64,000 bases of DNA. Origin: an uncultured Staphylococcaceae bacterium (GTDB lineage Bacteria; Bacillota_I; Bacilli_A; RFN20; CAG-826). The stretch is taken from NCBI GenBank assembly GCA_964371305.1, contig CAYJLA010000002.1:6236-70235 (forward strand). The letters run 5' to 3'. Below the pieces are notes generated by a model. It had not been told where the DNA came from. It saw nothing but the letters and a program-made list of their open reading frames with translations, and did not search any database. Within the stretch, counting starts at the first letter, position 1; every line of letters begins with the position of its first letter. Shown here in pieces: positions 2,966 through 49,801 of the stretch. The translations under genes and the position numbers were made by a program.

Positions 2966-3251
2966 CTAAGTAACCTCCTTAAAGATGTGTATTACTATTG
3001 TAGCAGTATTTTAATTTATATTATCACTACTATTATTATTAATATAGTAGAGAAAATATTTTTTAACTCTACTGTCAGTAGAAATCGTGTGTTAATCACT
3101 ATCTATTAGTATATATTATGCCAAAACTTTAAATTAAACGTATTAATAATGTGTTAATTATTTATATATTGAGCAAAGTTACAATTTAAAATAATTTTGC
3201 AATAATAATATAATTATTATATAATTGAAAAACGAAATAAGGACAATTATT

Positions 3252-4928: not shown

Positions 4929-4933
4929 GTTAT

Positions 4934-5656: not shown

Positions 5657-5659
5657 TTT

Positions 5660-24372: not shown

Positions 24373-24405
24373 AAAAATCGCAAGAATTATATCTTACGAT
24401 TTTTG
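24371..24405. terminator. bidirectional terminator between convergent lipoprotein genes
   Basis: A7-ATCGCAAGA-loop-TCTTACGAT-T5; one C:A mismatch in stem. Confidence 0.45.
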
Positions 24406-24434
24406 TAGCAAGTAATTAGACAAATACTATTAAA

Positions 24435-27610: not shown

Positions 27611-29095
27611 ATGAAGAAAACAAAACTATTAGTTTGTAGTGCTTTAGTTGCATTACTCGGCGTCACAGTTTTTTCAAGCAGTGTTACAAATAAGAACGTT
27701 ATTGGAACGCATGCTGCTGTTAATTCATCATTTGTAGAAGGTGAAGATAGAAAATTAGATAGCTTAACAGGAAGAGAAAATTTAATTGATGAAACTTTAT
27801 TTGATTACCAAGCAATTGAAGGTGCACACACATGGCAAAATAAAGATGTATTGAGAGTCAATATGAGCAATATTGCAGCAACTCAAAGAATTTATGGTGT
27901 AGCACCTAAATTAAATAGAGTAGGTAGATTAGGTGTGCTTGCCATAGAACTCAAGAGTTCAAATGGAGTAACTTTGTCTGATTTAAATATTAAATACAAT
28001 CGTGGAACATCACCAACTTCATATACTAATGTTACATTAAATTTTGCAGATGCAGTTGATGGTAATGGTAATCCATTGCCTGAAATAACAAATCAATGGC
28101 AAACAATATATATCGATGCAGTTGATTCATTAGATGAAAGTTATTCTGACATTGCTTCATTCATTGGCGATGGAGGTGGTGGATACAGTGATTTCAGTAT
28201 TCTACCAACTCAAGGTACAACTGGAAATCTAGACATCAATTACATTTGGTATGAAATAGAACAAGGATTGGGTTATTACAGCACCGGTGATGTTTATCAA
28301 ATTGACAACTTTGATGGTAGAACAAGTGTTAGTGATGCAACAGGATCAAATGTTTATTGGAGAGATTCATGGGCTGGCGGTACTATCGCTCCTAATAGAG
28401 TTATTTTATACAATACATCTTACTCAGTAGCTTCTCTTACTAATGGTAACGCTGACAATAAATATGGTAACTTAGCAATTAATGCATTTATTGGTAGTAT
28501 TTCAGAAGTAACGCCAATTTATACAACAAACAATGTAGATTTCTTTGAAGGTACTGCTGTTGCGTGGGCTAATTTAAGAGATCATAATAATGTGGAATTA
28601 GGAAGTATTTCTACTTCAGGTTTTGCGACCAAAGTTATTAATTTTGCAAATAGTGGCATTGAATATAGTAATATGGTCGGCATAAAAATTACTGGTTCTA
28701 GCGGTGTAGCAATTAATGAAATTTATTTTACTGGAGAAAACACTGCGGCTAAAGGAATTAATGATTTAGTTGATTATTTATTGCTTGAAGACACAGATGG
28801 CCAATGTAACACAAAGTTCAATACAGCTAAAACAATGTACTTAGGATTAAGTGAAACCGATAAAACTACATTTACAACTGGAACTGATAGAATTGCAGAA
28901 GCCAGAGTTCGTTATGAAGCTTGGGCAACTCATTTAGGACAAAGTGCATACGATGCATCTGAAGTCTTATTAGGTGCACAAGGTGAAATGAATACTAATA
29001 ACATAATTGCGGCTATTTCAATAATTAGTTTGGTAGGTACTTCAAGCATAATATTATTTGTATTCTTGAATAAAAGAAAAACTGTAAAAAGATAA
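27611..29095 (+). CDS. secreted surface protein, paralogue family A, C-terminal TM anchor + KRKTVKR tail
   Basis: Sec signal peptide; shares EDRKLD, APKLN..G..GVL.I.L.S and IDNFDGRTSVS blocks with 29256..31226; C-terminal hydrophobic helix plus basic tail. Confidence 0.6.
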   Translation: MKKTKLLVCSALVALLGVTVFSSSVTNKNVIGTHAAVNSSFVEGEDRKLDSLTGRENLIDETLFDYQAIEGAHTWQNKDVLRVNMSNIAATQRIYGVAPKLNRVGRLGVLAIELKSSNGVTLSDLNIKYNRGTSPTSYTNVTLNFADAVDGNGNPLPEITNQWQTIYIDAVDSLDESYSDIASFIGDGGGGYSDFSILPTQGTTGNLDINYIWYEIEQGLGYYSTGDVYQIDNFDGRTSVSDATGSNVYWRDSWAGGTIAPNRVILYNTSYSVASLTNGNADNKYGNLAINAFIGSISEVTPIYTTNNVDFFEGTAVAWANLRDHNNVELGSISTSGFATKVINFANSGIEYSNMVGIKITGSSGVAINEIYFTGENTAAKGINDLVDYLLLEDTDGQCNTKFNTAKTMYLGLSETDKTTFTTGTDRIAEARVRYEAWATHLGQSAYDASEVLLGAQGEMNTNNIIAAISIISLVGTSSIILFVFLNKRKTVKR

Positions 29096-29103
29096 AATAG
29101 TTC

Positions 29104-29131
29104 AAAGGGCCGATTAGTTTCGGCCCTTTTT
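29104..29131 (+). terminator. rho-independent terminator GGGCCG-loop-CGGCCC + T5
   Basis: GC-rich 6-bp stem 29107-29112/29121-29126. Confidence 0.7.
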
Positions 29132-29255
29132 ATATTAATTTGCAGTTTATTATGCTATTAATGCAGTTTTATGCCATTTATACAAAAGGAAAAGATTGAT
29201 ACAATTTTATTATCGAACAATAGATAATGTTTTAAAATATAAAGGAAGGTAAAAT

Positions 29256-31226
29256 ATGAAGAAATTACTTGTAGGTTTAGGTCTTCTAGGTACATTAGTT
29301 ATTTCGGCAGTGAGTTTCCCTCTAGAAACAAATGCAGCTGGGAAAGAATTTGATGTAGATGAAGATAGGATGCTTGATGATTTCAAGCATGAAGTGCTTG
29401 AAGATACTTCACAGTTTAGTTTAGTTGATGCAACTGGAAACTATGATTACAATAGCGCTAGTTATTTAGATGTTAATATAAACAATAACAACAATACTGT
29501 TAACACAGCTATTTATAAAGCTGCCCCAAAATTAAACACAATGGGAAAAACAGGCGTATTGTCGATTACATTACGTAGTATTGATAGTAGTGTTTCACTG
29601 GCGGATTTAGATTTACATTATAGAGGTGCTAGTGATAAGGACAGCGACACTCTTGCAGTTAATCTTGCTGAAGCGCGTGACCAAGATAACGCAGCGCTAG
29701 ATGAAATTACAGCGAGTTGGACTACTATACACATATCCCCAATGAATTCAGTTGAAGATCAGGCTTATATAAATGGGTATGTTGGTTTGCACCTAGTCGC
29801 TAAACCTAATTTAATTGGCAAATTATCAATTAAAGAAATGTGGTATGCCGAACAGCAAGGAAGTCCATTCAATGCATCTAGTGGAGTTTATCCAATTGAT
29901 AATTTTTCTGGAAGAGAGACTGTTTCTCAAACAAATAGCGAATATCCAAATACATGGTGGAGATTTTCTCATACAGGTGTACTAGCCTCAAACGGCTTAA
30001 CACTTAATGGTGGTACTTATACGGTTGCAAGTGATTCACGTGGTAATGGCGATAATGCACACAGCAATATAGTATTAACGCTCAAAGGCGGTGAAATGGA
30101 TGAGATAAAATTCGTTTATGGTGATGTAACAAATGGATATACATATTCAAAACCATATGCATGGAATGAATTAAAAAATAATGCAGGATCTACATATCCT
30201 AGTATCACTACTCAAGAATTTTATGGTTATATAATTAATTTTGATGCTACTGGTATTGAATCAAACATTGCAGGCATAATGTTAACTGGAACAGGTGTTA
30301 CAATAAAAAGTATATTCTTCACAAGTGAAGCTCCATTAATTCCGGCTACAGAATTTCCTAGAATGAACGCTGATAGTAGGAGAGTGTTTGAAGATTTTAA
30401 TCGCGATATAGTTGGAGCAACAACAACATATATACCAAATACTCCTACAGCAACCGCAGGCGATTTATATTACATTTTATCTTATAGTGGAAGTGAATCT
30501 TTAGCTATGGAAGATAATGCATTAGTATTTGATGGAACAAAATCTCCAGGAACTACAATAAACTATAAATCAAGTGGTAGTCGAAATAATAATGGTACTT
30601 ATCCGTTTGTTGTTTTTAAGATGAAGGGTACTGATGGTGCTAGCTTGAAAAACTTTAGTTTTACAACAATTGATGATAGTGGTAATACAACTGAGCCAAA
30701 ACTATTTAATGAGTTATATAGTGATGTGCAATACAATATACCTGATTTTGACGCGATAGATTATCCATACACCACTTCAGATGGCTGGATGTATATAATC
30801 ATTAATCTAGAATATAGTGGATTCCCAGCAGGATGTCATGGTTTTGACTTCTATTACAGTGGCCCTGGTAAGCTTTATATAGATGAAACATTATATATGA
30901 CAAGAGCAACCGCTGCAGTTGAATACACTGATGTAGTAAGTAGTCTAGAGACACAAAGTGACGTAACTTTGCCAGAAATTGAATATAGTTTAGTTGATCA
31001 ATTGACTATTGGCGAAACTGTTGTAATTAATCCAACATTCACAGATGACATGACTAGTAGTGAAGAAATCACAACTGTCATAAAAGTCAAACATAATGGT
31101 GAATACATTGATTTGACTTCAGAAAATTCTTTTGTTGTTGAACAAGGTAGTTATATAATCATAATCATTGCGATCGATAATAACAATAATACAAATATCT
31201 TGAAACTTTATAGGGAGGTAGCATAA
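29256..31226 (+). CDS. secreted surface protein, paralogue family A (no C-terminal anchor)
   Basis: Signal peptide ...ETNA/AGK; conserved blocks shared with 27611 and 37153 proteins (DNFSGRETVS, EDFNRDIVG). Confidence 0.6.
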   Translation: MKKLLVGLGLLGTLVISAVSFPLETNAAGKEFDVDEDRMLDDFKHEVLEDTSQFSLVDATGNYDYNSASYLDVNINNNNNTVNTAIYKAAPKLNTMGKTGVLSITLRSIDSSVSLADLDLHYRGASDKDSDTLAVNLAEARDQDNAALDEITASWTTIHISPMNSVEDQAYINGYVGLHLVAKPNLIGKLSIKEMWYAEQQGSPFNASSGVYPIDNFSGRETVSQTNSEYPNTWWRFSHTGVLASNGLTLNGGTYTVASDSRGNGDNAHSNIVLTLKGGEMDEIKFVYGDVTNGYTYSKPYAWNELKNNAGSTYPSITTQEFYGYIINFDATGIESNIAGIMLTGTGVTIKSIFFTSEAPLIPATEFPRMNADSRRVFEDFNRDIVGATTTYIPNTPTATAGDLYYILSYSGSESLAMEDNALVFDGTKSPGTTINYKSSGSRNNNGTYPFVVFKMKGTDGASLKNFSFTTIDDSGNTTEPKLFNELYSDVQYNIPDFDAIDYPYTTSDGWMYIIINLEYSGFPAGCHGFDFYYSGPGKLYIDETLYMTRATAAVEYTDVVSSLETQSDVTLPEIEYSLVDQLTIGETVVINPTFTDDMTSSEEITTVIKVKHNGEYIDLTSENSFVVEQGSYIIIIIAIDNNNNTNILKLYREVA

Positions 31227-32533
31227 TGTTTAATATAAAATTAAGACATATAGCGCTTGCAAGTGCTTGTTTACTAATCACAAGTTGTACTTCAGTACCA
31301 ACTGATACAACTAATTCAAGTACTGTAAATCCAAGTGTTGATCCATCAACATCAACTACAGATGAAACTTCAACGCCTAGTGTAACTGACCCTAGTATTT
31401 CCATACCTAGCGTAACTGATCCTAGCACTCCTACTGAAGAAGGATTTAAGAATTTAGATGTTAATAATTATGGACAAATTAACTGGTTTGGAAGAACGTA
31501 TTCTGAAGGTGGAAAAGAATATTTCCATTATTCTAGTAGTGGGTTTGAAGTTAAATTTTATGGTACAAGACTAATTGCTACTATTGGCGCAACAGAACAT
31601 AACAGTGATAAAAATAGACCATACATTGCTGTTTTTATTGATGGAGAAGATGATCCACGAAAAGCAACTACAATTGCGCTTGATAAAGCAGAAGGCGATT
31701 ACATGATTGCTGAAAATTTAGAAGAAGGATTTCATACTATAAGAGTATTAAAAATAAGTGAATCACAATATAGTAAATGTTATTTGAAAAGTGTATCGAC
31801 TGATGGAGAATTTTATACTCCACCTGCCAAAAAAGAAAGAAAAATTGAAGTTTATGGTGCTTCAACCACATGTGGTTTTGGAGTGTTTGGTTTAACTGGT
31901 CCTGAAGCGTTTAGAACAGAAACTGAAAGCTCATTATTCTCATTTGCTGGATTAACTTCAAGAGTTTTTGATGCTGAATATAATTTAGTTAGTGCATCTG
32001 GTTGGGCGATTACACAAAATAAAGCATCTGATGGTGTTTCTATGTTAGATGCATACGATCAAGTAGATTTAAAAAATCCAATGCCTTGGGACTTTGATAG
32101 GTTTGTGCCTGATTTAGTAATGATTAATTTAGCTACTAATGATTCAGTATATATTGATGATGCACCAACCATTGAAGAACGTGAAGCAAGAGAAACAAGA
32201 TACTATAATGGATATATTCAATTCATTGAGAATTTAAGAGCAGCTTATGATAATCCTGAGTTACCTGTCTTAATGATATATGGATTCTTAGATGATCAAG
32301 GTGTAGAAGGGCCTATTAAAGATATAAAAGCTCATTATGCTGCAAAAGGTGACGCATACGTAGATTTTCAGAAAGTTTATAAAGCTAATGCAACTGATGG
32401 ATTTGGTAGCAGCTATCATGCCTCAGCGCTTACTCATATTAGATCAACAGATGTAGTTGTTCCAAAAGTGATTGAGTTAAAGGATAGAGAGTGGGATATA
32501 GTTCACGAGAACATAACAACTCCAAAACTATAA
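31226..32533 (+). CDS. SGNH/GDSL-type esterase lipoprotein with N-terminal beta-sandwich (CE2-like carbohydrate esterase, putative)
   Basis: LITSCTS lipobox, Ser/Thr/Pro linker, block I-like YGASTTCGFG, block III-like NLATNDS; assignment by motif resemblance only. Confidence 0.45.
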   Translation: MFNIKLRHIALASACLLITSCTSVPTDTTNSSTVNPSVDPSTSTTDETSTPSVTDPSISIPSVTDPSTPTEEGFKNLDVNNYGQINWFGRTYSEGGKEYFHYSSSGFEVKFYGTRLIATIGATEHNSDKNRPYIAVFIDGEDDPRKATTIALDKAEGDYMIAENLEEGFHTIRVLKISESQYSKCYLKSVSTDGEFYTPPAKKERKIEVYGASTTCGFGVFGLTGPEAFRTETESSLFSFAGLTSRVFDAEYNLVSASGWAITQNKASDGVSMLDAYDQVDLKNPMPWDFDRFVPDLVMINLATNDSVYIDDAPTIEEREARETRYYNGYIQFIENLRAAYDNPELPVLMIYGFLDDQGVEGPIKDIKAHYAAKGDAYVDFQKVYKANATDGFGSSYHASALTHIRSTDVVVPKVIELKDREWDIVHENITTPKL

Positions 32534-32547
32534 AGTTGTAATTTATT

Positions 32548-32573
32548 AAAGGCAGATTTTCTGCCTTTTTTTA
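32548..32573 (+). terminator. rho-independent terminator AGGCAG-loop-CTGCCT + T7
   Basis: stem 32550-32555/32561-32566. Confidence 0.7.
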
Positions 32574-32735
32574 TCTCTTTCGTAGCAAATGTATTTTAAT
32601 AATATATAACTACGAAATGCATTATTATTAGATTATAAATCAACAATGTTAGGAAATATAACGAAGTTGTTAGGTTAAACTGCATATGTGTTAACATTTG
32701 TTTACTATAGTAAACTTTGTTGTTAATCTAAGTTT

Positions 32736-34442
32736 ATGAAAAACATATATAAACTATTTATTCTCATGTCACTAGTATTAACGGGGTGTAATAGTGTCAC
32801 ACCAGATAATACTGTGTCAAATTCTATAGATCCAGCACCTAGCGAAGAAATAAGTGTTACAACGCCATCAACAACAGATAAGCCACAAATGAAACAGTCG
32901 TATTTAGAAACAATAAATGTTCCATCAGAGATTGAACTTCTTGAGGGAATCACTCTTGAAAGCAATGGCATGAATATACCTGTTATGAAAGTAATGGTTA
33001 ACGATTCTCATGTATTTGAATATCCTGAATCAACAAGAATTGAATCTGGGTACTCGATTGTGTCCTTAGAAGGCAAAGCTACTCTTACATATACATTTAA
33101 TTATGATGTCAATAACGATACAGTTGTATTACCTAGTGATTATAATATTGTGCCTACAGTTGAATCAAATAAAAAAACAGTAAGTTTTGAAATATTTGAC
33201 CCAGGCTATTATGTTATTCAACCAAATAATGATATTTATAAAGCTATACATTTATTTGTAGAGCAAAAAGTTCAAAAAACGACATTAGACTTTGATGATC
33301 CAAATTTAATCTATTTCGGACCAGGAGTTCACAATAAAGATAACTCGCCTTATATCAATGATAAAAACTTTATATCGGTCAAAAGTGGACAAACTATATA
33401 CTTGGATCATGGTTCATTCGTTCAAGGAAGAATACAAGGTTATCAGGTTAATAATGTTACAGTCACTGGTGGAGGTGTATTCGATGGAACACCTTTCAGT
33501 AGAGAAGATGTAATTGTTCCAGTTTCATTTTCAAAAAGTCATGATATTCTTGTTGAAAATATATACTTAATAGATCCAGCAGCCTGGACGCTTCAATATA
33601 ATTTTGTTTGGAATTCTTCAATCAAAAACGTAGCCATTATTTCAAGTAGAGCAAATGGAGATGGCGTAACTTTGCAATCATGTGAGAATATAACTGTTGA
33701 TAATGTATTTGCAAGAGGTTATGACGACAACTTAGTCGTCAAAAATTACGCTTTTCCTTATGGAAATACTGATCCAAATAGTGTTGGGCATTCAAACAAT
33801 ATAACTTTTACAAATTGTGTTCTGTGGACTGACCTAGCTCAGTCAATAGAAATAGGCTATGAAACTTTAGGTGAAGAACTTAGTTATATTACTTTCGATA
33901 ATATCATTATATTAGCTGCTAATCACAAACCAGCAATTTCTATTCACAATGGTAATAGTGCTTTAGTGCATGATATTATATTCAAGAACATAACAGTTGA
34001 GTTTGCAAACATGGGAATGGGAGATGGTGCATACAATAAGGAATTGATAGATTTTAGTTCAATTTATTCAGCGGCATTTTCTGACAAGGCTCAAGGACCG
34101 ACTAAAGTCGGTAATATAGAAGGAGTTCTTGTTGAAAACGTTTTAGTTAAGGAAGTAAGAGAAAATTTAAATATTGAAATTAAACTTTACGGACAAAAAG
34201 ATACAAGAGAAGATTTCAAGGGCATTGTTTCAACTGTAACTGATATCGAATTTAAAGACATCACAATCAAAAATGAAAAATTGACGCTTGGAACGGCAAA
34301 TATTAATGCAAATCAGTATGCAAGTAATTATCGTTTTAGTAATAGCGATAATGAATCCACAGGAAGCTTGATTATATACGAAATCTCTAAAGAAGATCTT
34401 TTGAATTACACAAGCGAAGCAATAGTTAGTATTTTTAAGTAG
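32736..34442 (+). CDS. right-handed beta-helix (pectin-lyase-fold) glycoside-hydrolase-like lipoprotein
   Basis: LVLTGCN lipobox; NVTVTGGGVFDG, RANGDGVTLQSCENITVDN, GYDDNLVVK rungs reminiscent of GH28/GH49/GH87 beta-helix enzymes; family not assignable. Confidence 0.5.
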   Translation: MKNIYKLFILMSLVLTGCNSVTPDNTVSNSIDPAPSEEISVTTPSTTDKPQMKQSYLETINVPSEIELLEGITLESNGMNIPVMKVMVNDSHVFEYPESTRIESGYSIVSLEGKATLTYTFNYDVNNDTVVLPSDYNIVPTVESNKKTVSFEIFDPGYYVIQPNNDIYKAIHLFVEQKVQKTTLDFDDPNLIYFGPGVHNKDNSPYINDKNFISVKSGQTIYLDHGSFVQGRIQGYQVNNVTVTGGGVFDGTPFSREDVIVPVSFSKSHDILVENIYLIDPAAWTLQYNFVWNSSIKNVAIISSRANGDGVTLQSCENITVDNVFARGYDDNLVVKNYAFPYGNTDPNSVGHSNNITFTNCVLWTDLAQSIEIGYETLGEELSYITFDNIIILAANHKPAISIHNGNSALVHDIIFKNITVEFANMGMGDGAYNKELIDFSSIYSAAFSDKAQGPTKVGNIEGVLVENVLVKEVRENLNIEIKLYGQKDTREDFKGIVSTVTDIEFKDITIKNEKLTLGTANINANQYASNYRFSNSDNESTGSLIIYEISKEDLLNYTSEAIVSIFK

Positions 34443-34473
34443 AATAATCTACCTTAATTGCAGTTTTATCAAC
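34440..34473 (+). promoter_or_regulatory. direct-repeat cis-element copy 3 (ATCTACCTT-AATTGCAGTTTTATCAAC)
   Basis: Aligns with 27509..27545 and 53768..53804 copies; immediately upstream of 34523 gene. Confidence 0.45.
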
Positions 34474-34522
34474 TTATGGTTATTTACTAAATATGAGAAA
34501 ATTAAAATGTGAAGGAGTTTTT

Positions 34523-37126
34523 ATGAGCAAAATTACCAAAAAAATATTATTATCAAGTCTTTTATTATCAAGTTTAATCATTGTTGGATGTAGTCCAACT
34601 GTTGATGTTACTGATTCTAATGACAATTCAAATTCAACCGTGACTCCTACCGAGCCGGTTGTAAAAGATGTAGTAAGTACAACTAAGTTGGTTACCTATG
34701 ATGGGCCACAAGTGCTAGAATCTTCCTCTCTTGTTGATATTAAAGTAAATGACACTGAACTATTTGTTTATGAAACAAGAGTAAATCATAACAGAACATT
34801 TTCTTTTGTTGAAGTAGACACTGTTGCGCCAGTAGTAATTTTTGATTTTGAAGGCACAGTTAGTTTAGATCTGACTTTAAAAACTGGAGAAACTGTCGAT
34901 TCAGTCGTTGTAAGGCCTCTTGATTTTGATGTTGATGCTACATTTAGTGGCAGTAGTATAAAATTTGATATTTCATATCCTACAACTTATATTGTTGAGT
35001 ACAATGGATTGACCGACAAGGCAATTCATATTATCGCGAATCCTATAGAGGAAAATCCATTAACAGAAGAAACTGCTGATGTATATATTGGTCCTGGTGT
35101 ATATTCTGCTGGTGCAATACCAGTACAAAGTAATCAAACTGTATATATTGCTGGTGGTGCTGTTGTATATGGTTCTCTTAGGGGAGAAGGTTTAGAAAAT
35201 GTTACGCTTCGCGGTAGAGGTATTATTTCAGGTGCAATATATGAAAGACAAAGCGAAGCACAATTTACAATACCAGTTGAATTTAGACATTCAAACAATA
35301 TAACAATAGAAGGCCTAACATTTCTTGATCCAGCTGGATGGACAATTTTACTTTACAATGCCAACGGTGTAAACATAAATAATATTAAAATAATGACAGC
35401 TAGAGCTAATGGCGACGGCATTTCTATACAAGGGTCTAAAAATGTAACGGTTGATGGAGGTTTTGTTAGAAGTTGGGATGATTCTCTTGTTGTAAAAGCA
35501 GTTGGTAATTATTCAACTGAAAATATATTAATTAAAAATGTATCCGTTTGGACAGACTTAGCACAATCTTTAGAAGTCGGTTACGAAACAAACGGTGACT
35601 ACATTAAAAACGTTACATTTGACAACATTACAGTGTTTCATAATTTTCATAAACCAGTAGCCTCTATTCATGTTTGTGATAAAGCTGATGTAAGTCAAAT
35701 TACGTTTAAAAATATTACAGTTGAAGATGGAGAATTACTTGGAGATGATAGAAATAGTGATGAAGACGATTTGTTGTTTGATCTAACAATTAAATTTCAT
35801 CCATCATGGTCTGTAGGTGCAGGCTCATTTGGTACAATAAAAGACGTATTATTTGATAATGTTAAAGTTATTGAAACAGCTTCAGAAAACTTAATTTCTA
35901 AAGCAGAGGGCGACTCAGCAAGCTCAAATATTGATGGTGTTGAGTATAGAAATATTGAAATTGAAGGCGGTGCAGTTAAGTCATTAGAAGATTTAAATTT
36001 TGTTAAAAATGATTATGTTAGTGATGTGAAAGTTACATCAAATAGCACGACTACTGGAGCTACTCCAATTAGATTATATGAACTAGACTTAAAAGACGAT
36101 TTAGTGAACATAACAAAAACCCCTACAATAGCTCAAGAGGGTGTTCAAGTACCTGAATTTGCAATCAGTAAAGGTGAGCTTCCTTTCATGGGTAGTGAAA
36201 TAGAATTTAATGGTGAAGTTAATGCATATCGTTCCGCAGGTATTACAAATTCAACTCCTGGAAGTGATGGAAGTGGTAGTTTTGCACAAACTGGATACGA
36301 AGCCAGTAATGTTGTAGATGGCGATAGAAATACTATGTTTAAGTCAAAGGACTTCAGTGATGTAGAAAATGAATTTGCAAATCTTGAAATTACCTTCTCT
36401 GAAACACAATATGTTGGTGTTATTCGTCTTATGTTACCTGAGGATAATACATATAGTTATGATTTCATGATAGAAGTTAGAGCTAGACGCGTTGTAGATG
36501 GAGAAGAAAAAGACACATTTTCAAGAATTCTTGCAAGGACATCATATTCAATATCTCCTGCAACAAATAATATAGTTGATATTAAAATAAATCCTTATAC
36601 ATATAAAGCGTTTGAGTTAAGAATGTTCAAACTTGATTCAGTTATGGCGCAAGATAACATTTCTTTAAGCGAAGTAAAATTCTTTGGTCCTTCAATATCA
36701 CACAACAAAGCTATAGTAGATTCTACTCCTTATAGTGATGTTTATGTTCCAAGCAATTTAACTGATGGAGATACTTCTACTTATTATGAAGCATCAAGTT
36801 TCCCTGGATACGTAGTTATCGATTTAGGTGCTGTATACAATGTAAAAGTCGTTACTTTATCATTACCAAGTTCTCTTGCTTGGGGCACTAGAACTCAAGA
36901 AATAGAAATGCTTGGAAGCGATTCAAACGTAGCTTATACAAATTCAACCTCGTTTACTCAATTCCAAGAAAAAACAAATTGTATTTTTGATCCAACTACT
37001 GGTAATAGTGTGAAATTCGAATATGAAAGCGGAGTTTCGCTGAGATTTTTAAAAGTTGTGATACATTCAAATGATATACTTGGCAACTATGGCGGGCAAT
37101 TGTCTGAAGTTTCCGTGTTTGCGTAA
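34523..37126 (+). CDS. beta-helix glycoside-hydrolase-like lipoprotein with two C-terminal F5/8 type C (discoidin) domains
   Basis: GAAGGAG RBS before ATG 34523; LIIVGCS lipobox; catalytic-domain paralogue of 32736 protein (RANGDGISIQGSKNVTVD, SWDDSLVVK); discoidin-like NVVDGDRNTMFKS...LSEVKFFG and LTDGDTSTYYEAS...LSEVSVFA. Confidence 0.55.
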   Translation: MSKITKKILLSSLLLSSLIIVGCSPTVDVTDSNDNSNSTVTPTEPVVKDVVSTTKLVTYDGPQVLESSSLVDIKVNDTELFVYETRVNHNRTFSFVEVDTVAPVVIFDFEGTVSLDLTLKTGETVDSVVVRPLDFDVDATFSGSSIKFDISYPTTYIVEYNGLTDKAIHIIANPIEENPLTEETADVYIGPGVYSAGAIPVQSNQTVYIAGGAVVYGSLRGEGLENVTLRGRGIISGAIYERQSEAQFTIPVEFRHSNNITIEGLTFLDPAGWTILLYNANGVNINNIKIMTARANGDGISIQGSKNVTVDGGFVRSWDDSLVVKAVGNYSTENILIKNVSVWTDLAQSLEVGYETNGDYIKNVTFDNITVFHNFHKPVASIHVCDKADVSQITFKNITVEDGELLGDDRNSDEDDLLFDLTIKFHPSWSVGAGSFGTIKDVLFDNVKVIETASENLISKAEGDSASSNIDGVEYRNIEIEGGAVKSLEDLNFVKNDYVSDVKVTSNSTTTGATPIRLYELDLKDDLVNITKTPTIAQEGVQVPEFAISKGELPFMGSEIEFNGEVNAYRSAGITNSTPGSDGSGSFAQTGYEASNVVDGDRNTMFKSKDFSDVENEFANLEITFSETQYVGVIRLMLPEDNTYSYDFMIEVRARRVVDGEEKDTFSRILARTSYSISPATNNIVDIKINPYTYKAFELRMFKLDSVMAQDNISLSEVKFFGPSISHNKAIVDSTPYSDVYVPSNLTDGDTSTYYEASSFPGYVVIDLGAVYNVKVVTLSLPSSLAWGTRTQEIEMLGSDSNVAYTNSTSFTQFQEKTNCIFDPTTGNSVKFEYESGVSLRFLKVVIHSNDILGNYGGQLSEVSVFA

Positions 37127-37152
37127 CTTAATAATTTAAAAGGAGAAAGTTT

Positions 37153-40062
37153 ATGAAAAAAATTACATTTGGACTAATCAGTTTACTTGCAACCCTTGGG
37201 TTAGTGTTCGCAACTAACGCAGGTGATGCTACAAAAGTAAGTGCAAGAGATTATGATGAAAATTATGACGTTTGGTTAGATGATCTTTCCGGAGACACCC
37301 CTGCAGGAACATTAACAAACGGTGCATTTAATAAAGTGCCATATTTAACAGCACAGGCAAGCGGAGATTTTGGAAAAGATCCAAACGAAGCGCTTTATAA
37401 AGCGGGTATTGGTAGTTTTACTTTTTCGAATTCAAAAGAGGTAACTTTATCAATGAGAATTGGAAATGAAGGAGCACTCAGTTTAGGTGATTTATCTATT
37501 GCGATTAGAGGTGGCGATTCATATGTTCCATATGCTGTTACTTTTGATACTTTATTTACTACTGATGGCGAGTCTATGCCAGCACTTACAAATGAATTTC
37601 AAGATTATACTATAAGTTGGACAACTTCACTTGAAGGAACAGAAATGTACACAGTTGCATCAACTGGAGAACTTTCAACTGTTAATGTTTTATCATCTGA
37701 AATGGTTGGCATTCATATATATTATTCAGGTGAAGGAGATATGACTACACCGTTAGAAATTTCTTCAATTAAATCTGGATCTACTGTAGTCGATGACTTT
37801 AATAGAACCGATGTTAGTTCAACAGTTGGTTGGTCTGGATGGTGGAGAGGTAGTGTTGGAACTATAGTTAATAAGAGTATTCATTTAAATCAAAATGATT
37901 CACAATATGATGTATATGATGATTCAAAGACTGACTTTAGTGGAGTAGTTGTTCTCATAAGTGGTGATAGTACAGGCGTATCTTTTGCAGTACGCAGCAA
38001 CAGTGCGTATTCTTCGTATATCCCATACCTAGATATAAAAGATTACGATAATAATACTGTTGAATCACTAAGTAATGAAAAACAAGCTATTTATATAGAT
38101 GCAGAAAATACATTTTCAATTGTAGATGACATTACAGGGGTTAGCATAAGAGCTGCTACACCAAATGTACATATTTGGGGTATATTTCTTTCAAACAACG
38201 AATCTACACCTGCTGATGTTTCATGGCCGTCACTTGATCTAAAAAACGTGACGTATTTTGATGATTTTAACCGCGCAGATAGAAATAAATTTGAGACGTC
38301 TTACGATGCTTCTCAAGCAGCCTTGACTGATGAAGATAAACAACACGGAGTCGATTATAATATCGCATACGAAGGTGCTGACTATGTTAGTTTAATAGAC
38401 GAAGCTCTTGTTTTTAAACCAAATAATGGTTCTCTTGTAAACTATGGACATGGTGTAAAAACTGATGTTTCTAATAATGATTATTTAGTATTTTCAGTTA
38501 AAACTACTGAAAACGCTACACTAGATGGTTTTAGAGTTAGTATTGGTAACGATATACTATGGGCAAATCAATTTATGTCTGGTAATCAGTTACCAGCAGC
38601 ACAAATTGGGCAAGTAGGATATCCATTTATTGATGGTGAATTTACATGGTTGATTATTGATTTACATCAACATGAAATTAGTCCAAGTAATACAATGGTT
38701 TTCTATTATGAATCAGGTGTAGATGTAACTGGTAATATAGTCATCGACCAAATATTCTATACTAATGCAAAAGACGACTTAAACACCACATCAAGAGTTG
38801 GAATTGAAGAAACTACATATAGTCTTGATGCAGCTAAAGATTTAGGCACTTTTACTAGCACTTTAATAAAAGATACTGTACTTGTCGAAATGGATATGAC
38901 AATTACAGGAACAACTAAAATCGATGGACTAAGTTTAGTCGTTGGCGGAACGGAACTTACTTTTGCTAGTGGACTAATTAACCAATTTGGTGAAGTTATT
39001 CCTACTGAATATAGCGATGAAACATTCAAAGTTACAGTAGACTTATTAGCAAACGGAATCACTTTAGTAGATGGTGCTTCAGTAGTTTTGAAAAATAATA
39101 CAGTTGTCGCAGGAGGAACACTTACTGTTGCAGCAACTTTAAAAGATAGAGTTTTACATAATGTAAGAAATATCATTGCTTCTACAAGCGTTGATACATC
39201 TGGTTATGTTTATGGTGGAGGAATTGATCTTACACAATTGCAATCAAATCTTATTGAATTTAATGTAACTTCCACAAGTGATGTTGTTGATGGTATTTCA
39301 TCATTGAGATTAGAGTTTGTGACCGGAGAATTCTTATTCTTAAATACAGGAACTGTTTATAATCAATATGGAGAATTAATTTCAACAAATTTAATAGCTG
39401 GAGAAAATTCAATTGTTATTGATTTAACGGCTTCAGGAATAGATGTAAATTCAATTAAAGGAGCAGGACATTTTCATGCTGGTGGATGGGGACCTGCTGC
39501 TACCCTTACAGTAGAAATTAATGAAGTTAGTTATAGAAACCTATCTCAAGATGTTACAGAGTTAGAACAGTTTAAAAAATATGATATTGTTGCACCAACT
39601 GTTTCTATGTTTGAAGTCAGCGGATCTACAACCGTAGGAAGTGAATTAACAGTTACTTATAATATAAATGATGATGTTAGTCTTGAAGAAAACCTTACTG
39701 TCAAAGTAATAGTATCTTATGGTAGTGGTATTACATACATGGAAGAAAACATAACTTCAACAATGAAGTTTACTCCAACTGTAGCGCAGGACTATACATT
39801 TACAATTACTGTTACAGATGAAGCGGGCAACGAAGTTGAAGTAGATAAAGTTATTAATATAACTGAAGCAACTACAGAACCTCCAATCACTTCTGAACCT
39901 AGTGTCGGTGAATCAACTACAATCGGTTCAACATCAACTGGCGGCGGGAATAATGAACCAGTTGATAATACAATGTTAATCGTTATACTTTCTTCAGTTG
40001 GTGGGGTTATCCTACTAGGTGGCGTTATATTCTTTGTGATTAACAAAAGAAGTAAAAAGTAA
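37153..40062 (+). CDS. large secreted surface protein (969 aa), paralogue family A modules, C-terminal TM anchor + KRSKK tail
   Basis: Signal peptide ...ATNA/GDA; repeated DDFNRTDVSS / DDFNRADRNKFE modules; Thr/Ser/Pro stalk then hydrophobic helix and basic tail. Confidence 0.6.
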   Translation: MKKITFGLISLLATLGLVFATNAGDATKVSARDYDENYDVWLDDLSGDTPAGTLTNGAFNKVPYLTAQASGDFGKDPNEALYKAGIGSFTFSNSKEVTLSMRIGNEGALSLGDLSIAIRGGDSYVPYAVTFDTLFTTDGESMPALTNEFQDYTISWTTSLEGTEMYTVASTGELSTVNVLSSEMVGIHIYYSGEGDMTTPLEISSIKSGSTVVDDFNRTDVSSTVGWSGWWRGSVGTIVNKSIHLNQNDSQYDVYDDSKTDFSGVVVLISGDSTGVSFAVRSNSAYSSYIPYLDIKDYDNNTVESLSNEKQAIYIDAENTFSIVDDITGVSIRAATPNVHIWGIFLSNNESTPADVSWPSLDLKNVTYFDDFNRADRNKFETSYDASQAALTDEDKQHGVDYNIAYEGADYVSLIDEALVFKPNNGSLVNYGHGVKTDVSNNDYLVFSVKTTENATLDGFRVSIGNDILWANQFMSGNQLPAAQIGQVGYPFIDGEFTWLIIDLHQHEISPSNTMVFYYESGVDVTGNIVIDQIFYTNAKDDLNTTSRVGIEETTYSLDAAKDLGTFTSTLIKDTVLVEMDMTITGTTKIDGLSLVVGGTELTFASGLINQFGEVIPTEYSDETFKVTVDLLANGITLVDGASVVLKNNTVVAGGTLTVAATLKDRVLHNVRNIIASTSVDTSGYVYGGGIDLTQLQSNLIEFNVTSTSDVVDGISSLRLEFVTGEFLFLNTGTVYNQYGELISTNLIAGENSIVIDLTASGIDVNSIKGAGHFHAGGWGPAATLTVEINEVSYRNLSQDVTELEQFKKYDIVAPTVSMFEVSGSTTVGSELTVTYNINDDVSLEENLTVKVIVSYGSGITYMEENITSTMKFTPTVAQDYTFTITVTDEAGNEVEVDKVINITEATTEPPITSEPSVGESTTIGSTSTGGGNNEPVDNTMLIVILSSVGGVILLGGVIFFVINKRSKK

Positions 40063-40166: not shown

Positions 40167-41381
40167 ATGTATAAAATGATTGTAATTGATGATGAAATCA
40201 TCGTTAGAAGAGGTATTAAAGAAACTATCGATTGGTCTAAACATAATGTTGAAATAATTGGAGATGCTTCAAACGGCCAGGAGGGATATGAACTTATTAA
40301 AAAGTTGAATCCTGATATTGTTATTACTGATGTGAAAATGCCGATTTTGACAGGAACTGAACTTGCAACTAGGCTAAAAGACGATGGTTTTAATGGAATA
40401 GTTATTATTATTTCTGGCTATAAAGATTTTGAATATGCAAAAAGCGCTCTTAGTGCAGGTGTGTTTCAGTATTTACTCAAGCCATTTGCTAATCGTGAAT
40501 TAGAAGAGTGTGTAAACGATGCAATCAATAAACTAAAAGAACGTATGAAAACTGAAAATATATTAGATGTTTTTAGTAGTTCAAAGATAGACTTGAATAG
40601 TAAATTGTTTAGAGACATTGTTAGAAAAAATTATGCTAATATCGATGATATAAGAAATATGTTTGTAATTTCCAATATTGATTTCTTTGATGAATACTGT
40701 ATCGTGATTGGTGTTTTGGATAAAATTGACGAACATTTTTCAAGTGATAGAAAAATGATAAAGTGTATAGATGATGCATTTAATGATCATGAAAATCAAT
40801 ATTTGTTAGGAGTATATCATAACAGAGTCGTCATGGTTACAAACCTTGAACACGATCTAATTATTAAACTTCTTGAGAACGCTTTTAAGCATTTTGAGTT
40901 AATAACTAGCGAATTTACATTTTCTTTCGGTATGAGTGATTCATCCAATACCTTTAGTAACGCTAATGAGTTGTATGAACAAGCAAAAAATATTGCAGAA
41001 AATAAATTATTTACTACTTCTAATTCAATATTAGATAATAGTGGTGAAACAAAAAAATATAAAAAGAATACAGTAGAAATTCTTAAAATAATTCAAACAA
41101 GATACAGTGAAAATCTCACTGTTAAAATTGTTGCTGAAGAAGTTTTGATTAGTGAATCATCGTTAATGCATTTACTAAAGGATGATTTAGGAATGACTTT
41201 CAATGATATTCTAACAACACACAGAATCAATGAGGCCAAAAAACTCCTCCTAAGTTCAAAATATAGAATAAATGAAGTCGCAAGATTAGTAGGATATAGT
41301 GATGATAAATATTTTACTGCTCTATTTAAGAAAAAAACAGGCTTAACTCCATCAAAATTTATATTAGCGAATGAACAATAA
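40167..41381 (+). CDS. two-component response regulator, REC + AraC-type HTH (YesN-like)
   Basis: IVIDDE...ITDVKMP phospho-acceptor region; C-terminal AraC HTH (GYSDDKYFTALFKKKTGLTPSKF). Confidence 0.8.
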   Translation: MYKMIVIDDEIIVRRGIKETIDWSKHNVEIIGDASNGQEGYELIKKLNPDIVITDVKMPILTGTELATRLKDDGFNGIVIIISGYKDFEYAKSALSAGVFQYLLKPFANRELEECVNDAINKLKERMKTENILDVFSSSKIDLNSKLFRDIVRKNYANIDDIRNMFVISNIDFFDEYCIVIGVLDKIDEHFSSDRKMIKCIDDAFNDHENQYLLGVYHNRVVMVTNLEHDLIIKLLENAFKHFELITSEFTFSFGMSDSSNTFSNANELYEQAKNIAENKLFTTSNSILDNSGETKKYKKNTVEILKIIQTRYSENLTVKIVAEEVLISESSLMHLLKDDLGMTFNDILTTHRINEAKKLLLSSKYRINEVARLVGYSDDKYFTALFKKKTGLTPSKFILANEQ

Positions 41382-43104
41382 TAAAAGTAAGAAATCAATC
41401 TCTGTTGTGCTATTTACATCTATTAGCGTTCTTTTTGTCTCAATATTTATTATAGTTGTTACAAGTGTATTTATAACTGTGAATATAGCTACTGGTAATT
41501 ATAGTAAGAATAATTTTACTACATCTGCAAACAAGGTTGATGATACATTATCCGAAATCTTATATTCAATAACAGCTACTCATGTTTTAACTTTCAATGA
41601 CGAAGGAATTTCTGAATTTTCATTAGTCGATGACAATAGTAAGCAAGTATATTTTGAAAATTTATATAAAAATGGGTCAATTAATAACGAGAATTATGTT
41701 GGTATGAGTTTGTACTTTGAAGATAAAACTTACATATCAAGTCAAGCCGTCCCCTTTCTTGGTAAAACCGAAATAGATGCAGTTAACAATAGTAGCAACT
41801 ACATGGTTTATGTAAGTACTATTTCTTCCAGTGATGAATCTATGATAGTTTTTGGTAAAAAAGTTCAATACTCATTAGCATCTGAATCAGTAGGGGTTGC
41901 ATTTTACTATTTAAAAGAGAGTGTTATATTAAAAGTTTTGGATTTGATTAATGTTGAAGGCTCCGAAACATTTTTGGTCACTAATGATGCTTATGGTGTT
42001 GCACATCCTAATGAGGAACTTAATGGAATTTACTTATACAATTTTGAATTTGCTAGGTATTTGGGCTCCAACTCAGTCGAGGAGTTTGGGAATTATAATG
42101 GTAAATATTCTATTTTTTCGTTAAGTTCTATGCACAAAACTAATTATGCATATGATTTAGACTTTACAATCGTGTCCGCAACTCCGTTTTACTCTGTGTA
42201 TGGAAGCATCATCATTACGTATTTGATTGTAGGTATTATCGCGCTTATTTCACTCGCACTAAGCATTACATTTGGTATTTTAATTTCTAAAAAAATAATT
42301 AATCCATTGATCAGTCTTTCACACAAGGTAGGTGAATATTCACCTTTACAAGACACAATATTAACTAAAGTAGTAGATAACAAGAACGAAGTATACATTT
42401 TAGAAGAATCTTATGATTTAATGATGGATAGAATTAGAAATTTAATGAACCAATCAATTCGTGATATGGAAACGAAAAGAAATTTAGAACTAGAAACTCT
42501 ACAAATGCAAATTAATCCGCACTTTTTATATAACACATTAGATGCAATTGCATGGATGGCCAAATTTAAAGATGAAAAAGACATCGAACAATTAGTAATT
42601 GAATTATCAAAGTTTTATAGAGTTTCGCTTCATAAAGGAGCAAAGTTTATTAAAGTAAGTGAAGAAATGGAAATTATAGACCATTTTATGAAAATAGAGC
42701 TGGTAAGATTTCCTAATAAATTTACGTATGATTTAAATATAGATGAAGATGTAAAAAATGCTCAAACTCTTAAACTTATATTACAACCTATAGTAGAAAA
42801 CGCAATCAAGCATGGATTAGCTTCACTTAATAGAATTGGACATATTGATATAACTGTCTCAAGAAGTAACGATAATATCATATTCATTATTAAAGATGAT
42901 GGTGTAGGTTTTGATTTTGATGATTCTTCGTTTTTGGATAGGAAAAATGATCCAAGCTATCATGGTGGCTATGGATTGTATAATGTACAAGAAAGAATAC
43001 ATTTAGAGTATGGTTCGCAATATGGCATTGAAGTTGATTCAATAAAAGATCGTGGAACAAAGGTTATAGTTAAAATACCATTTATATATCATTCTGTTGA
43101 TTAA
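41371..43104 (+). CDS. sensor histidine kinase (YesM-like; 2 TM + extracellular sensor + HAMP + His_kinase/HATPase)
   Basis: INPHFLYNTLDAIAW H-box, N/G boxes (IVENAIKHG, DDGVGF, GYGLYNV); overlaps RR stop by 11 nt. Confidence 0.8.
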   Translation: MNNNKSKKSISVVLFTSISVLFVSIFIIVVTSVFITVNIATGNYSKNNFTTSANKVDDTLSEILYSITATHVLTFNDEGISEFSLVDDNSKQVYFENLYKNGSINNENYVGMSLYFEDKTYISSQAVPFLGKTEIDAVNNSSNYMVYVSTISSSDESMIVFGKKVQYSLASESVGVAFYYLKESVILKVLDLINVEGSETFLVTNDAYGVAHPNEELNGIYLYNFEFARYLGSNSVEEFGNYNGKYSIFSLSSMHKTNYAYDLDFTIVSATPFYSVYGSIIITYLIVGIIALISLALSITFGILISKKIINPLISLSHKVGEYSPLQDTILTKVVDNKNEVYILEESYDLMMDRIRNLMNQSIRDMETKRNLELETLQMQINPHFLYNTLDAIAWMAKFKDEKDIEQLVIELSKFYRVSLHKGAKFIKVSEEMEIIDHFMKIELVRFPNKFTYDLNIDEDVKNAQTLKLILQPIVENAIKHGLASLNRIGHIDITVSRSNDNIIFIIKDDGVGFDFDDSSFLDRKNDPSYHGGYGLYNVQERIHLEYGSQYGIEVDSIKDRGTKVIVKIPFIYHSVD

Positions 43105-44224: not shown

Positions 44225-45637
44225 ATGAAAAAATTAATTAAATCATTATTAATGTGTGGAGCAATGGCCAGCGTAATTGCGTTTACAACTGGTTGTAGCG
44301 AAGATGATGGAGTTGTTCAAGTAAGAATAGGGATGTGGCCAGCTGCACAATTAACACAAGACATAGCAATGTTTAACAATTGGAAAACTGAGTTCGAAAG
44401 AGATAATCCTGGATATGAAATTATTGCTGATAACTATGAATATGATCCTAGTACAGTAGTGGCCAAAGCTCAATCTAAAACGCTTCCTACGGTGTTTCAA
44501 ACATGGTTTACTGAACCAGAAATGTTAATAAACTCAAGATATATAAGAGATATTACTCCTCAACTTAATGAATTAGGTTGGCTTGATAAAATGGATGTAA
44601 AAATGAAAGACATTTTATCAAGAGATGGAAAAACTTACGGTGTACCAAGAGACGGTTATGGACTTGGTATGGTTATGAACTTAGAACAACTGGAGTTTTA
44701 TGGAATTTTAGAAGACCTAGATGGTGATGGAAAAATTGATATACATGATGAAGATGGTCAGCCGCTTTATCCTACGACTTTTGAAGAATTAAGGCAATTA
44801 AGTGTCGATATAGATAGTGCAAGTGATGGAATGGTCAAAGGTTCACTTATTTTATCCTCAAATAAAAATGGAGGATGGCAATTTTCTAATATAGCATGGA
44901 ATTTTGGTGCTGAATTACAAATAAAAAATAGTGAAGGTAAATATGTTGGCAATCTTGCAAGTGATGAATCAGTTGATGCATTAGAATATATACAAGATCT
45001 TGCCCAAAATGACTTATTACTTGATAATACCGCAGTCGTTTATAATGATTGGACAAGGTTTATTTCCGGACAAGTTGCAACTGCTTTTGTGGGAAATGAT
45101 GTTGTAGCAAATGCTGTTACGCAAGGTGGCGTAGATTTAGACAAGATAGCATTTGTACCAATGCCAGCTGGTCCAGATTCACAAAATGCATTGTTTGGTG
45201 GAACTCCTTATGTTTTTGCTAATAATGCTACTGATGAAGAAGTTATGGGCGCCTTAAAGTTTCTTGAATATATGGGTAGATCTCCAGAAGACTCTGATAT
45301 TGCAGAAGAGGCATTAGAAGAAGGAGCACAACTTTCACAAGCAAAGTCAATACCTATTTTGCCTTCAATTAAGCCATGGACAAACGATGAATATCTAACC
45401 TTAACTAAAAGTATTGAAGATAAGTACGTTAATGTAGAGATGGATTATTTTAAAGATTTCTATGATTCAATCTATACAATTAGACACGACGAAGAACCTT
45501 ATTTCACACAGGCAATGTATTCGTTGTTAGATAATTGTATACAAGAAGTTCTAGATGATCCATATTCAGCTAATGCTAAAACATTATTGGAAACTGCAAA
45601 CAGTCAATTTAACAACCAATATATGTCCAATTTATAA
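44225..45637 (+). CDS. sugar ABC transporter substrate-binding lipoprotein (family 1 SBP)
   Basis: AFTTGCS lipobox; 470 aa extracellular solute-binding protein pattern. Confidence 0.8.
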   Translation: MKKLIKSLLMCGAMASVIAFTTGCSEDDGVVQVRIGMWPAAQLTQDIAMFNNWKTEFERDNPGYEIIADNYEYDPSTVVAKAQSKTLPTVFQTWFTEPEMLINSRYIRDITPQLNELGWLDKMDVKMKDILSRDGKTYGVPRDGYGLGMVMNLEQLEFYGILEDLDGDGKIDIHDEDGQPLYPTTFEELRQLSVDIDSASDGMVKGSLILSSNKNGGWQFSNIAWNFGAELQIKNSEGKYVGNLASDESVDALEYIQDLAQNDLLLDNTAVVYNDWTRFISGQVATAFVGNDVVANAVTQGGVDLDKIAFVPMPAGPDSQNALFGGTPYVFANNATDEEVMGALKFLEYMGRSPEDSDIAEEALEEGAQLSQAKSIPILPSIKPWTNDEYLTLTKSIEDKYVNVEMDYFKDFYDSIYTIRHDEEPYFTQAMYSLLDNCIQEVLDDPYSANAKTLLETANSQFNNQYMSNL

Positions 45638-45649
45638 AAAGGAAATATA

Positions 45650-47532: not shown

Positions 47533-47536
47533 AATT

Positions 47537-49795: not shown

Positions 49796-49801
49796 GTATT
49801 T

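Follow-up and report, generated by a model that had tools for sequence, protein, structure and literature searches.

Within a 64,000-nucleotide stretch of DNA from an uncultured Staphylococcaceae bacterium (hereafter, the window), three related genes encode proteins, named here P1, P2 and P3. With some reserve, we take these to be non-catalytic proteins that are tethered to the membrane and probably capture glycan for a locus of probable alpha-glucan utilization. The three are paralogs made of repeated modules, their predicted fold is that of carbohydrate-binding modules (CBMs), hydrophobic anchors are found in them, members of their family occupy a conserved position in the locus, and across the family one kind of membrane anchor alternates with another; that they bind a glycan, and which one, we infer. 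What is new is an undescribed sequence family, while surface glycan-binding proteins of CBM fold and their ordinary anchor belong to what is already known. The original prediction, made from the sequence by eye, had described a paralogous family of exported surface proteins, possibly undescribed, with repeated D-x-F-x-(G/N)-R modules, two of them being tail-anchored. The open reading frames (ORFs) to which it referred do start at positions 27611, 29256 and 37153 on the forward strand, and the sequence blocks that it quoted are all present (EDRKLD/EDRMLD, APKLN, IDNFDGRTSVS, IDNFSGRETVS, VDDFNRTDVSS, FDDFNRADRNKFE, KRKTVKR and KRSKK).

The paralogy was borne out by BLASTP comparisons, in which P1 and P2 share 34% identity over 347 amino acids (aa; E = 2e-42) and P2 and P3 share 24% identity over 613 aa (E = 2e-16); direct similarity between P1 and P3 is weak, and P2 bridges both. 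When all ORFs of the window were searched with a hidden Markov model of the family, P1, P2 and P3 were matched and no others. Alignment with relatives revealed a common plan, in which an N-terminal signal sequence is followed in every member by modules termed A and B. Module C is present in P2 and P3, P3-type proteins further add two or three D modules, and an immunoglobulin (Ig)/PKD-like module is found near the C-terminus of P2 and P3. P1 thus consists of a signal peptide (residues 1 to ~35), module A (~40-215), module B (~225-376, starting with IDNFDGR), a segment of ~85 aa (377-460), a transmembrane (TM) helix (~465-486) and the tail NKRKTVKR. In P2, the signal peptide is followed by A (~30-205), B (~206-365, starting with IDNFSGR), C (~366-552, starting with FEDFNRD) and a C-terminal Ig-like module (~560-656), for which a weak OmpL47-type match was found and nothing stronger. 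P3 is composed of a signal peptide, A (33-205), B (206-352, starting with VDDFNRT), C (362-538, starting with FDDFNRA), D1 (545-668), D2 (669-800), the Ig/PKD-like module (~810-900), a linker rich in Thr, Ser, Gly and Pro, a TM helix (~941-963) and the tail NKRSKK; its Big_13 and PKD matches in Pfam are weak. The 377-460 segment of P1 (window positions 28739-28990) has one Cys residue and the motif A-x-x-R-Y, is common only to P1 and its ortholog P0120 (from locus L001) and has no Pfam match even at E = 10. Its AlphaFold2 confidence is ~30, as the alignment used had placed module C of other sequences at this position.

The modules, each of ~150-170 aa, are mutually homologous, and the proteins can be regarded as chains of them. 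Profile-profile comparison related A to B with 93% probability (E = 2e-7), B to C with 87%, B to D2 with 83%, C to D1 with 74% and D1 to D2 with 99%. Modules A, B and C open with a strand of the form hydrophobic-D-[DN]-F-[ND]-R, and module C closes with the strand L-x-I-D-x-I-F-F-A. Conservation of the motif was computed over 120 representative relatives, using P3 numbering. In module A, it reaches 93% for D39, 77% for D44 and 74% for F45; in module B, 70% for D214, 92% for F216, 60% for R218 and 96% for W231; and in module C, 67% for D370, 92% for F372, 57% for N373 and 50% for R374. The repeated modules of the original prediction are hence found both in profile-profile homology and in a family-wide motif, with the reservation that the consensus D-x-F-x-(G/N)-R, as worded, fits the B modules of P1 and P2, that the motif counts one residue fewer in the remaining modules (D-D-F-N-R) and that module A presents the variant L-D-D-F/L. 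The motif marks the first strand of the repeated domain. At their other end, the D modules (D1 and D2 of P3, window positions 38785-39552, and those of relatives) finish in a conserved H-x-H-x-G-G motif (e.g., HFHAGGWG, FHFGGWG, FHIHS).

Structure prediction, proposed at the outset as a check for a repeated fold, together with Foldseek gave chains of jelly-rolls at moderate confidence, such that P1-P3 are predicted to be built of tandem beta-jelly-roll (CBM-fold) modules. In the AlphaFold2 model of P1, based on a seven-sequence alignment, modules A and B present predicted local distance difference test (pLDDT) values of 80-94, the predicted template-modeling score is 0.59 and the C-terminal 118 residues are unreliable. 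The P3 model is moderate, with pLDDT values of 70-88 for A and B, 50-73 for C and 56-76 for D, and poor values for the rest. For P1, Foldseek retrieved tandem CBM22 (probability 0.99), CBM8, CBM6 and the surface glycan-binding protein (SGBP) SGBP-B of B. thetaiotaomicron (PDB 7kwb, 0.90), and for P3, reelin repeats, the C-terminal regions of Cry and Vip3, a multimodular xanthanase, SGBP-B (0.87) and CBM8. The CBM families named under the predicted fold are CBM29, CBM30, CBM22, CBM35, CBM36, CBM6 and CBM86. The closest fold matches are thus glycan-binding modules and SGBP-B.

Sequence libraries were far less informative. Searches of Pfam and NCBIfam with P1-P3 and four relatives returned no CBM family, and no model above threshold covered the core modules. 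In single-sequence phmmer searches of P1-P3 against all PDB chains, the core modules likewise had no match, a profile of 54 family members found only PKD domains among the PDB chains, corresponding to the C-terminal Ig module, and a module A profile found nothing there even at E values of up to 10. Module C of P3 (aa 410-479) resembles DUF7908 (PF25485) with E = 1.6e-5 and 25.6 bits, where the gathering threshold is 27, over ~70 of the 969 residues of P3; P1 and P2 do not match DUF7908, and it is absent among the families matched by the 54 relatives. As the precomputed annotation of the relative P0005 lists PF25485, membership in DUF7908 should be considered borderline. The Pfam scan of the 54 members showed no catalytic domain but did show Ig, PKD and Flg_new accessory domains, and single members match CBM74, PUD or glucodextranase domain B. 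One could alternatively propose that the modules themselves are catalytic, namely, a jelly-roll glycoside hydrolase (GH), lyase or transglycosylase of an undescribed family acting on the substrate. Some GH and polysaccharide lyase families indeed have a jelly-roll fold, and polar and aromatic residues are strongly conserved (e.g., D39 and W231, see above); given the scan just described, we regard such a catalytic role as very improbable and retain glycan capture as the preferred reading.

The family extends well beyond the window. An exhaustive HMMER profile search of 1.84 billion cluster representatives yielded 169 proteins at E <=1e-3 and 124 at E <=1e-30, where the resulting family size of ~170 refers to clusters at 50% identity. 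Word-indexed homolog searches with P1-P3, by comparison, found five distinct relatives, and a scan of GTDB genomes with P2 found none. Looked up as exact sequences, P1 and P2 likewise matched no recorded contig. Most relatives are 800-1100 aa long and display the P3 architecture. Just two P1-type proteins were found, namely, P1 itself (P0004) and P0120 of L001, P2-type proteins fell into a single cluster, and P1 and P2 are thus taken to be lineage-specific duplicates, with P3 being the conserved member. All members that were looked up derive from metagenomes or metagenome-assembled genomes (MAGs) and are nameless or termed 'hypothetical protein', and in the literature that we searched, neither the family nor DUF7908 nor a locus of this type was found to be described. 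As the Pfam, NCBIfam and PDB sequence models miss the core modules and the database entries are unnamed, the family is effectively undescribed at the sequence level, as the original prediction had thought possible. A 956-aa Ig-rich neighbor in locus L087 was tested as a further member and ruled out.

The manner in which these proteins are held at the cell surface was addressed by Kyte-Doolittle hydropathy. An N-terminal hydrophobic segment is found in P1, P2 and P3, in agreement with the earlier proposal that all three are exported, and the N-terminal signal sequences, of the MKK-hydrophobic type, reach values of 2.15 in P1 and 1.80 in P3. P1 and P3 possess a second, C-terminal segment, taken as the TM helix (hydropathy maxima in Table 1), and P2 has no such segment. 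The helix is preceded by ...GEMNTNN in P1 and ...NEPVDNT in P3, and its basic tail would lie inside and the ectodomain outside, according to the positive-inside rule. As predicted, therefore, P1 and P3 carry a TM helix and a basic tail at the C-terminus; the term 'tail-anchored' was, however, not appropriate, since signal peptides of the cleavable type are also present and the two proteins would be strictly speaking type I single-pass.

The C-termini of P1 and P3, a hydrophobic helix and then a Lys/Arg tail, are like those of LPXTG sortase substrates, yet the absence of an LPXTG or PEP-CTERM motif, as claimed for both, was confirmed, with no such or similar motif being found before the helix. 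Regular expressions for LPxT[GAN], NPxT[GN] and [SP]PxTG had no match in 51 TM-anchored full-length relatives, no motif upstream of the helix common to P1, P3 and their orthologs was found in the alignments, and the NCBIfam sorting-domain models did not match P1, P3 or nine TM-anchored relatives. A special sorting signal at the C-terminus was thus ruled out, and as the LPXTG or variant motif is absent, the helix is best understood as a permanent membrane anchor rather than as a sorting signal. No lipobox ([LVI][ASTVI][GAS]C) was found in a suitable position in P1, P2 or P3. Nine other exported proteins of the window do have a lipobox (a count that includes two whose starts had been missed by the automated scan), and none has LPXTG.

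Among the 120 full-length members of the family, 58 have a lipobox and no C-terminal TM helix and 47 have a Sec signal peptide and a C-terminal TM helix. Lipobox and TM helix are combined in only three members (probably reflecting a Cys inside the signal peptide), seven have a Sec signal peptide and no TM helix (two of these visibly do have a helix), and in five the signal sequence was undetected. From these counts, nearly every member is membrane-tethered at one end. Indeed, lipobox and C-terminal TM helix are almost mutually exclusive (Fisher's exact test, p = 6e-21), and this alternation indicates that the two serve as interchangeable anchors for the same ectodomain. It thereby supports surface localization and, at the same time, identifies the C-terminal helix as a plain anchor and not as a new device. 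A signal peptide, a C-terminal TM helix and a positive-inside tail together are a common and well-known arrangement, and the suggestion of a new sortase-independent anchor must accordingly be abandoned: the helix is ordinary, it has no upstream signature and no sorting-domain match, and relatives exchange it for a lipobox. The exchange is rather of value as a clean example of functionally equivalent anchors, and not as a new mechanism.

Two motifs were seen in the C-terminal regions of other TM-anchored relatives. In 14 of the 51, the helix starts with GLSxGAIxGIxIG (P0059, P0036, P0074, P0077, P0072, P0101 and others), and in 12 of the 51, a Cys motif, G-C-[GK]-[GS], stands just before the helix (P0082, P0087, P0091, P0099 and others). 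Neither class is matched by the NCBIfam sorting-domain models, and both motifs are absent from P1 and P3. They could represent lineage-specific sorting or lipidation signals. In the lipoprotein-type relatives, a short conserved '..PY......Y..' tail follows the last D module.

Gene linkage provides the functional context of the family. In eight of nine independent loci, from diverse metagenomes (the window, L001, L002-4 counted as one, L085, L086, L087, L088 and L090), the family gene lies directly 3' of a gene for a beta-helix protein of ~870 aa with F5/8 domains; the ninth locus carries a distant member whose match is confined to module C. Where the contigs continue, a regulator gene comes next, together with the genes of an ATP-binding cassette (ABC) importer (one solute-binding protein and two permeases) and of two GH65 enzymes; the importer was found in the window and in L002, L003, L004, L085, L087 and L088. 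This linkage bears on the proposal that the jelly-roll chains are adhesins, binding host mucus, dietary particles or other microbes in a role of colonization or attachment, instead of supplying the enzymes of the locus. Their build is that of Gram-positive adhesins (signal peptide, beta-sandwich repeats, Ig/PKD stalk, Ser/Thr/Pro linker and membrane anchor), and some of the fold matches are to proteins that are not glycan binders. However, the P3-type gene is fixed between the beta-helix glycanase and the regulator or ABC importer genes in the eight loci, P3 is apparently in one transcription unit with two glycanases, and such strict linkage to a substrate locus is not normal for general adhesins. 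The adhesin reading is thus disfavored by the strict linkage to glycanase and importer genes, and we consider it unlikely. Where the original prediction had left open 'glycan-binding or adhesin proteins of the locus', the part concerning glycans can therefore be kept, as synteny argues for a role in a glycan locus and the fold is compatible with glycan binding, whereas the adhesin part finds little favor.

Close gene pairing could also be taken to mean that P1-P3 are scaffolds or partner subunits, which would not themselves bind glycan but would assemble a surface complex through protein-protein contacts, with the lipoprotein glycanases, the esterase or the solute-binding protein as their partners. 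The beta-helix genes are paired with P3, and P2 forms a pair with the CE2-like esterase, with their two ORFs sharing one base (31226 is the last base of P2 and the first of the esterase). Moreover, P2, having no anchor, would need a partner to remain on the cell, and the glycanase already bears F5/8 (CBM32-like) domains of its own. Nonetheless, no cohesin, dockerin or other known interaction module was found in the Pfam scans of P1-P3 and the 54 members, and the nearest fold matches are the glycan-binding modules and SGBP-B noted above. We thus judge a scaffolding role to be improbable.

The glycan-capture reading itself has some drawbacks that need to be considered. There is no sequence link from P1-P3 to a CAZy or Pfam CBM family or to a solved structure, the only near-match being DUF7908. 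The models deserve only moderate trust in modules C and D (pLDDT 50-76) and none in the C-terminal parts. The jelly-roll matches include reelin, Cry and Vip3 toxins, phage proteins and CIA30, such that the fold is also present in proteins that do not bind glycans. Signal-peptide cleavage and topology are predicted from hydropathy and the positive-inside rule. Finally, the substrate side draws on beta-helix enzymes that resemble GH28 and GH49 weakly.

With regard to these enzymes, a profile of orthologs of the 877-aa beta-helix protein matched the GH28 structure 3jur (E = 1e-13) and the GH49 dextranase 1ogm (E = 6e-7); no GH87 chains were matched, and a GH87 identity was thus ruled out. The two beta-helix lipoproteins (32736-37126, with orthologs in L001, L002, L085-L088 and L090) fit no GH family by our searches and are kept strictly with the ABC importer and two GH65 genes, with a beta-phosphoglucomutase also being encoded in the window; they are candidates for an undescribed family of extracellular alpha-glucanases. 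The first GH65 protein matched the deposited 'kojibiose phosphorylase' 6w0p with E = 4e-257, and the second matched the 2-O-alpha-glucosylglycerol phosphorylase 4ktp with E = 6e-118. Tandem GH65 genes have been described as a two-step route, acting on oligomers and then dimers, for alpha-1,3-glucan (review, PMC11442529). The GH65 pair and the beta-phosphoglucomutase together suggest an alpha-glucan, which is probably the substrate of the locus as judged from its gene content, and the presence of the CE2-like esterase suggests that this substrate is possibly acetylated.

If glycan capture is indeed the role of these proteins, they could operate as follows. P1-P3 would be exported through Sec via their N-terminal signal peptides, with P1 and P3 being held at the outer face of the cytoplasmic membrane by the single C-terminal TM helix and the Lys/Arg tail remaining cytoplasmic, and with P2 being either released or retained through protein or glycan contacts only. 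P3, apparently co-transcribed with the two lipoprotein beta-helix glycanases, would capture the target polysaccharide and keep it at the membrane beside these glycanases and the lipoprotein solute-binding protein of the ABC importer. The captured polysaccharide would be presented by P1-P3 to the lipoprotein glycanases and the esterase, and the products would pass to the solute-binding protein, the ABC importer and then phosphorolysis by the two GH65 enzymes, after which the beta-glucose 1-phosphate formed would be converted by beta-phosphoglucomutase. P1 and P2 would, as duplicates, add binding capacity, with P2 being paired with the CE2-like esterase.

Such an arrangement invites comparison with the SusE, SusF and SGBP-B proteins of polysaccharide utilization loci (PULs) in Bacteroidota, which are also non-catalytic tethered chains of CBM-like beta-sandwiches in a glycan locus, encoded beside a surface glycanase and an importer. 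SGBPs are lipoproteins, as are many P3 relatives. Sequence similarity to P1-P3 is, however, absent, the host of P1-P3 is of a Bacilli lineage, the importer is of the ABC type and not SusC/D, and P1 and P3 are anchored by a C-terminal TM helix and not by an N-terminal lipid. Among Gram-positive gut bacteria, starch adherence (Sas) proteins and other CBM-rich surface proteins, such as Sas6 of Ruminococcus bromii, provide non-catalytic multi-CBM docking of alpha-glucan, using CBM26 and CBM74 with dockerin or cell-wall attachment. The P1-P3 family, in contrast, is attached to the membrane by a TM helix or a lipid, and its modules match no recognized CBM family, with one member showing a CBM74-like match. 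Nor did HMMER searches of Pfam and PDB chains find similarity of P1-P3 to the jelly-roll CBM families (CBM8, CBM11, CBM22, CBM6/35/36, CBM29/30), and the modules of P1-P3, rather than being attached to an enzyme, constitute the entire protein. The nearest approach to a named family is the sub-threshold likeness of module C of P3 to DUF7908.

These comparisons should be viewed in light of the fact that the surface glycan-binding proteins of Bacteroidota PULs are well defined, whereas their counterparts in Firmicutes and Bacilli, especially in uncultured gut lineages with reduced genomes, are poorly catalogued. The family marks a conserved and uncharacterized utilization locus with a beta-helix glycanase, an ABC importer and two GH65 enzymes, as well as, in the window, a beta-phosphoglucomutase. 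If the modules bind glycan, they would represent new CBM families and offer a handle on both the substrate and a new glycanase family. Plausible, although in our judgment falling slightly short of probable, is the wider proposal that modules A-D found one or more new CBM families for the glycan of the locus (probably an alpha-glucan) that is cut by an unassigned family of clan GH-N-like beta-helix glycanases, and that P3-type proteins are the equivalent in Bacilli and Firmicutes of SusE/F in an ABC-importer PUL, with lipid and TM anchors being interchangeable.

In the window, the G+C content of which is ~31%, the gene order is ribokinase, P1, P2, the lipoprotein esterase, the two beta-helix lipoproteins and P3, followed by an AraC-type response regulator, a YesM-type kinase, a cache-domain protein, the lipoprotein solute-binding protein, two ABC permeases and two GH65 enzymes and, farther downstream, a LacI regulator and the bona fide beta-phosphoglucomutase. 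The coordinates are summarized in Table 1. The intrinsic-terminator-like hairpin directly 3' of P1 suggests that P1 is a separate transcription unit. With the hairpins after the esterase gene and after P3, three units are suggested, these being P1 alone, P2 with the esterase, which probably form an operon, and the two beta-helix genes with P3; this operon structure is read from the hairpins and the ORF overlap. For the esterase, an NCBIfam AxeC2-like match remained below the cut-off.

Table 1 Features of the P1-P3 locus and their positions in the window.
Feature	Position	Strand	Basis or remark
P1, 494 aa	27611..29095	+	ORF
P1 C-terminal TM helix IIAAISIISLVGTSSIILFVFL and basic tail NKRKTVKR	29003..29092	+	Kyte-Doolittle maximum 2.39
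Terminator-like hairpin after P1	29104..29129	+	10-bp stem, 6 GC pairs, then T-rich tail TTATATT
P2, 656 aa	29256..31226	+	ORF; without membrane anchor
CE2_N + GDSL esterase lipoprotein (CE2-like), lipobox TSC	31226..32533	+	Pfam CE2_N, E = 1.3e-15
Terminator-like hairpin after CE2-like esterase	32548-32568		Hairpin scan
Beta-helix glycanase-like lipoprotein, 568 aa	32736..34442	+	GH28 similarity weak
Beta-helix glycanase-like lipoprotein, 877 aa, with F5/8 type C (CBM32-like) domains	34493..37126	+	Pfam, synteny
P3, 969 aa	37153..40062	+	ORF; widely conserved family member
P3 C-terminal TM helix MLIVILSSVGGVILLGGVIFFVI and basic tail NKRSKK	39973..40059	+	Kyte-Doolittle maximum 2.61
Terminator-like hairpin after P3	40080..40101	+	Closes the putative unit of two beta-helix genes and P3
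AraC-type response regulator and YesM-type histidine kinase, presumed locus regulators	40167..43104	+	Same arrangement in L087 and L088
Lipoprotein solute-binding protein, two ABC permeases, two GH65 phosphorylases	44225..51874	+	Uptake and cytoplasmic breakdown arm
Beta-phosphoglucomutase	53866..54492	+	TIGR01990, 232.6 bits, cut-off 189.4

The cache-domain gene that follows the histidine kinase (43082-44092) is on the reverse strand in the window, whereas its homolog (30% identity, E = 4e-13) is on the forward strand, directly 3' of the kinase, in L087 and L088, and this flip suggests a local inversion in the genome from which the window derives. Just upstream of the locus, at 23578-26270, two lipoproteins of 264 aa (forward strand) and 611 aa (reverse strand) are encoded, which have no Pfam match and lie outside the P1-P3 family. 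Farther away, the region 3225-6367 encodes in turn a Cthe_2159-type carbohydrate-binding beta-helix lipoprotein, a VTC-domain protein and a protein with five TM segments; this cassette constitutes another small surface-associated set, apparently unrelated to P1-P3.

The window also contains ribosomal protein genes. Its L2 protein shares 73-80% identity with its nearest matches, gut Bacilli MAGs (from goat reticulum and Hadza human samples), and ~71% with Erysipelotrichaceae. Ribosomal protein L5 (62836-63615; 259 aa in total) carries an N-terminal extension of ~80 aa that is rich in Lys, Ala and Thr, and L22 (60101-60514) also has a Lys-rich extension, shorter than that of L5.

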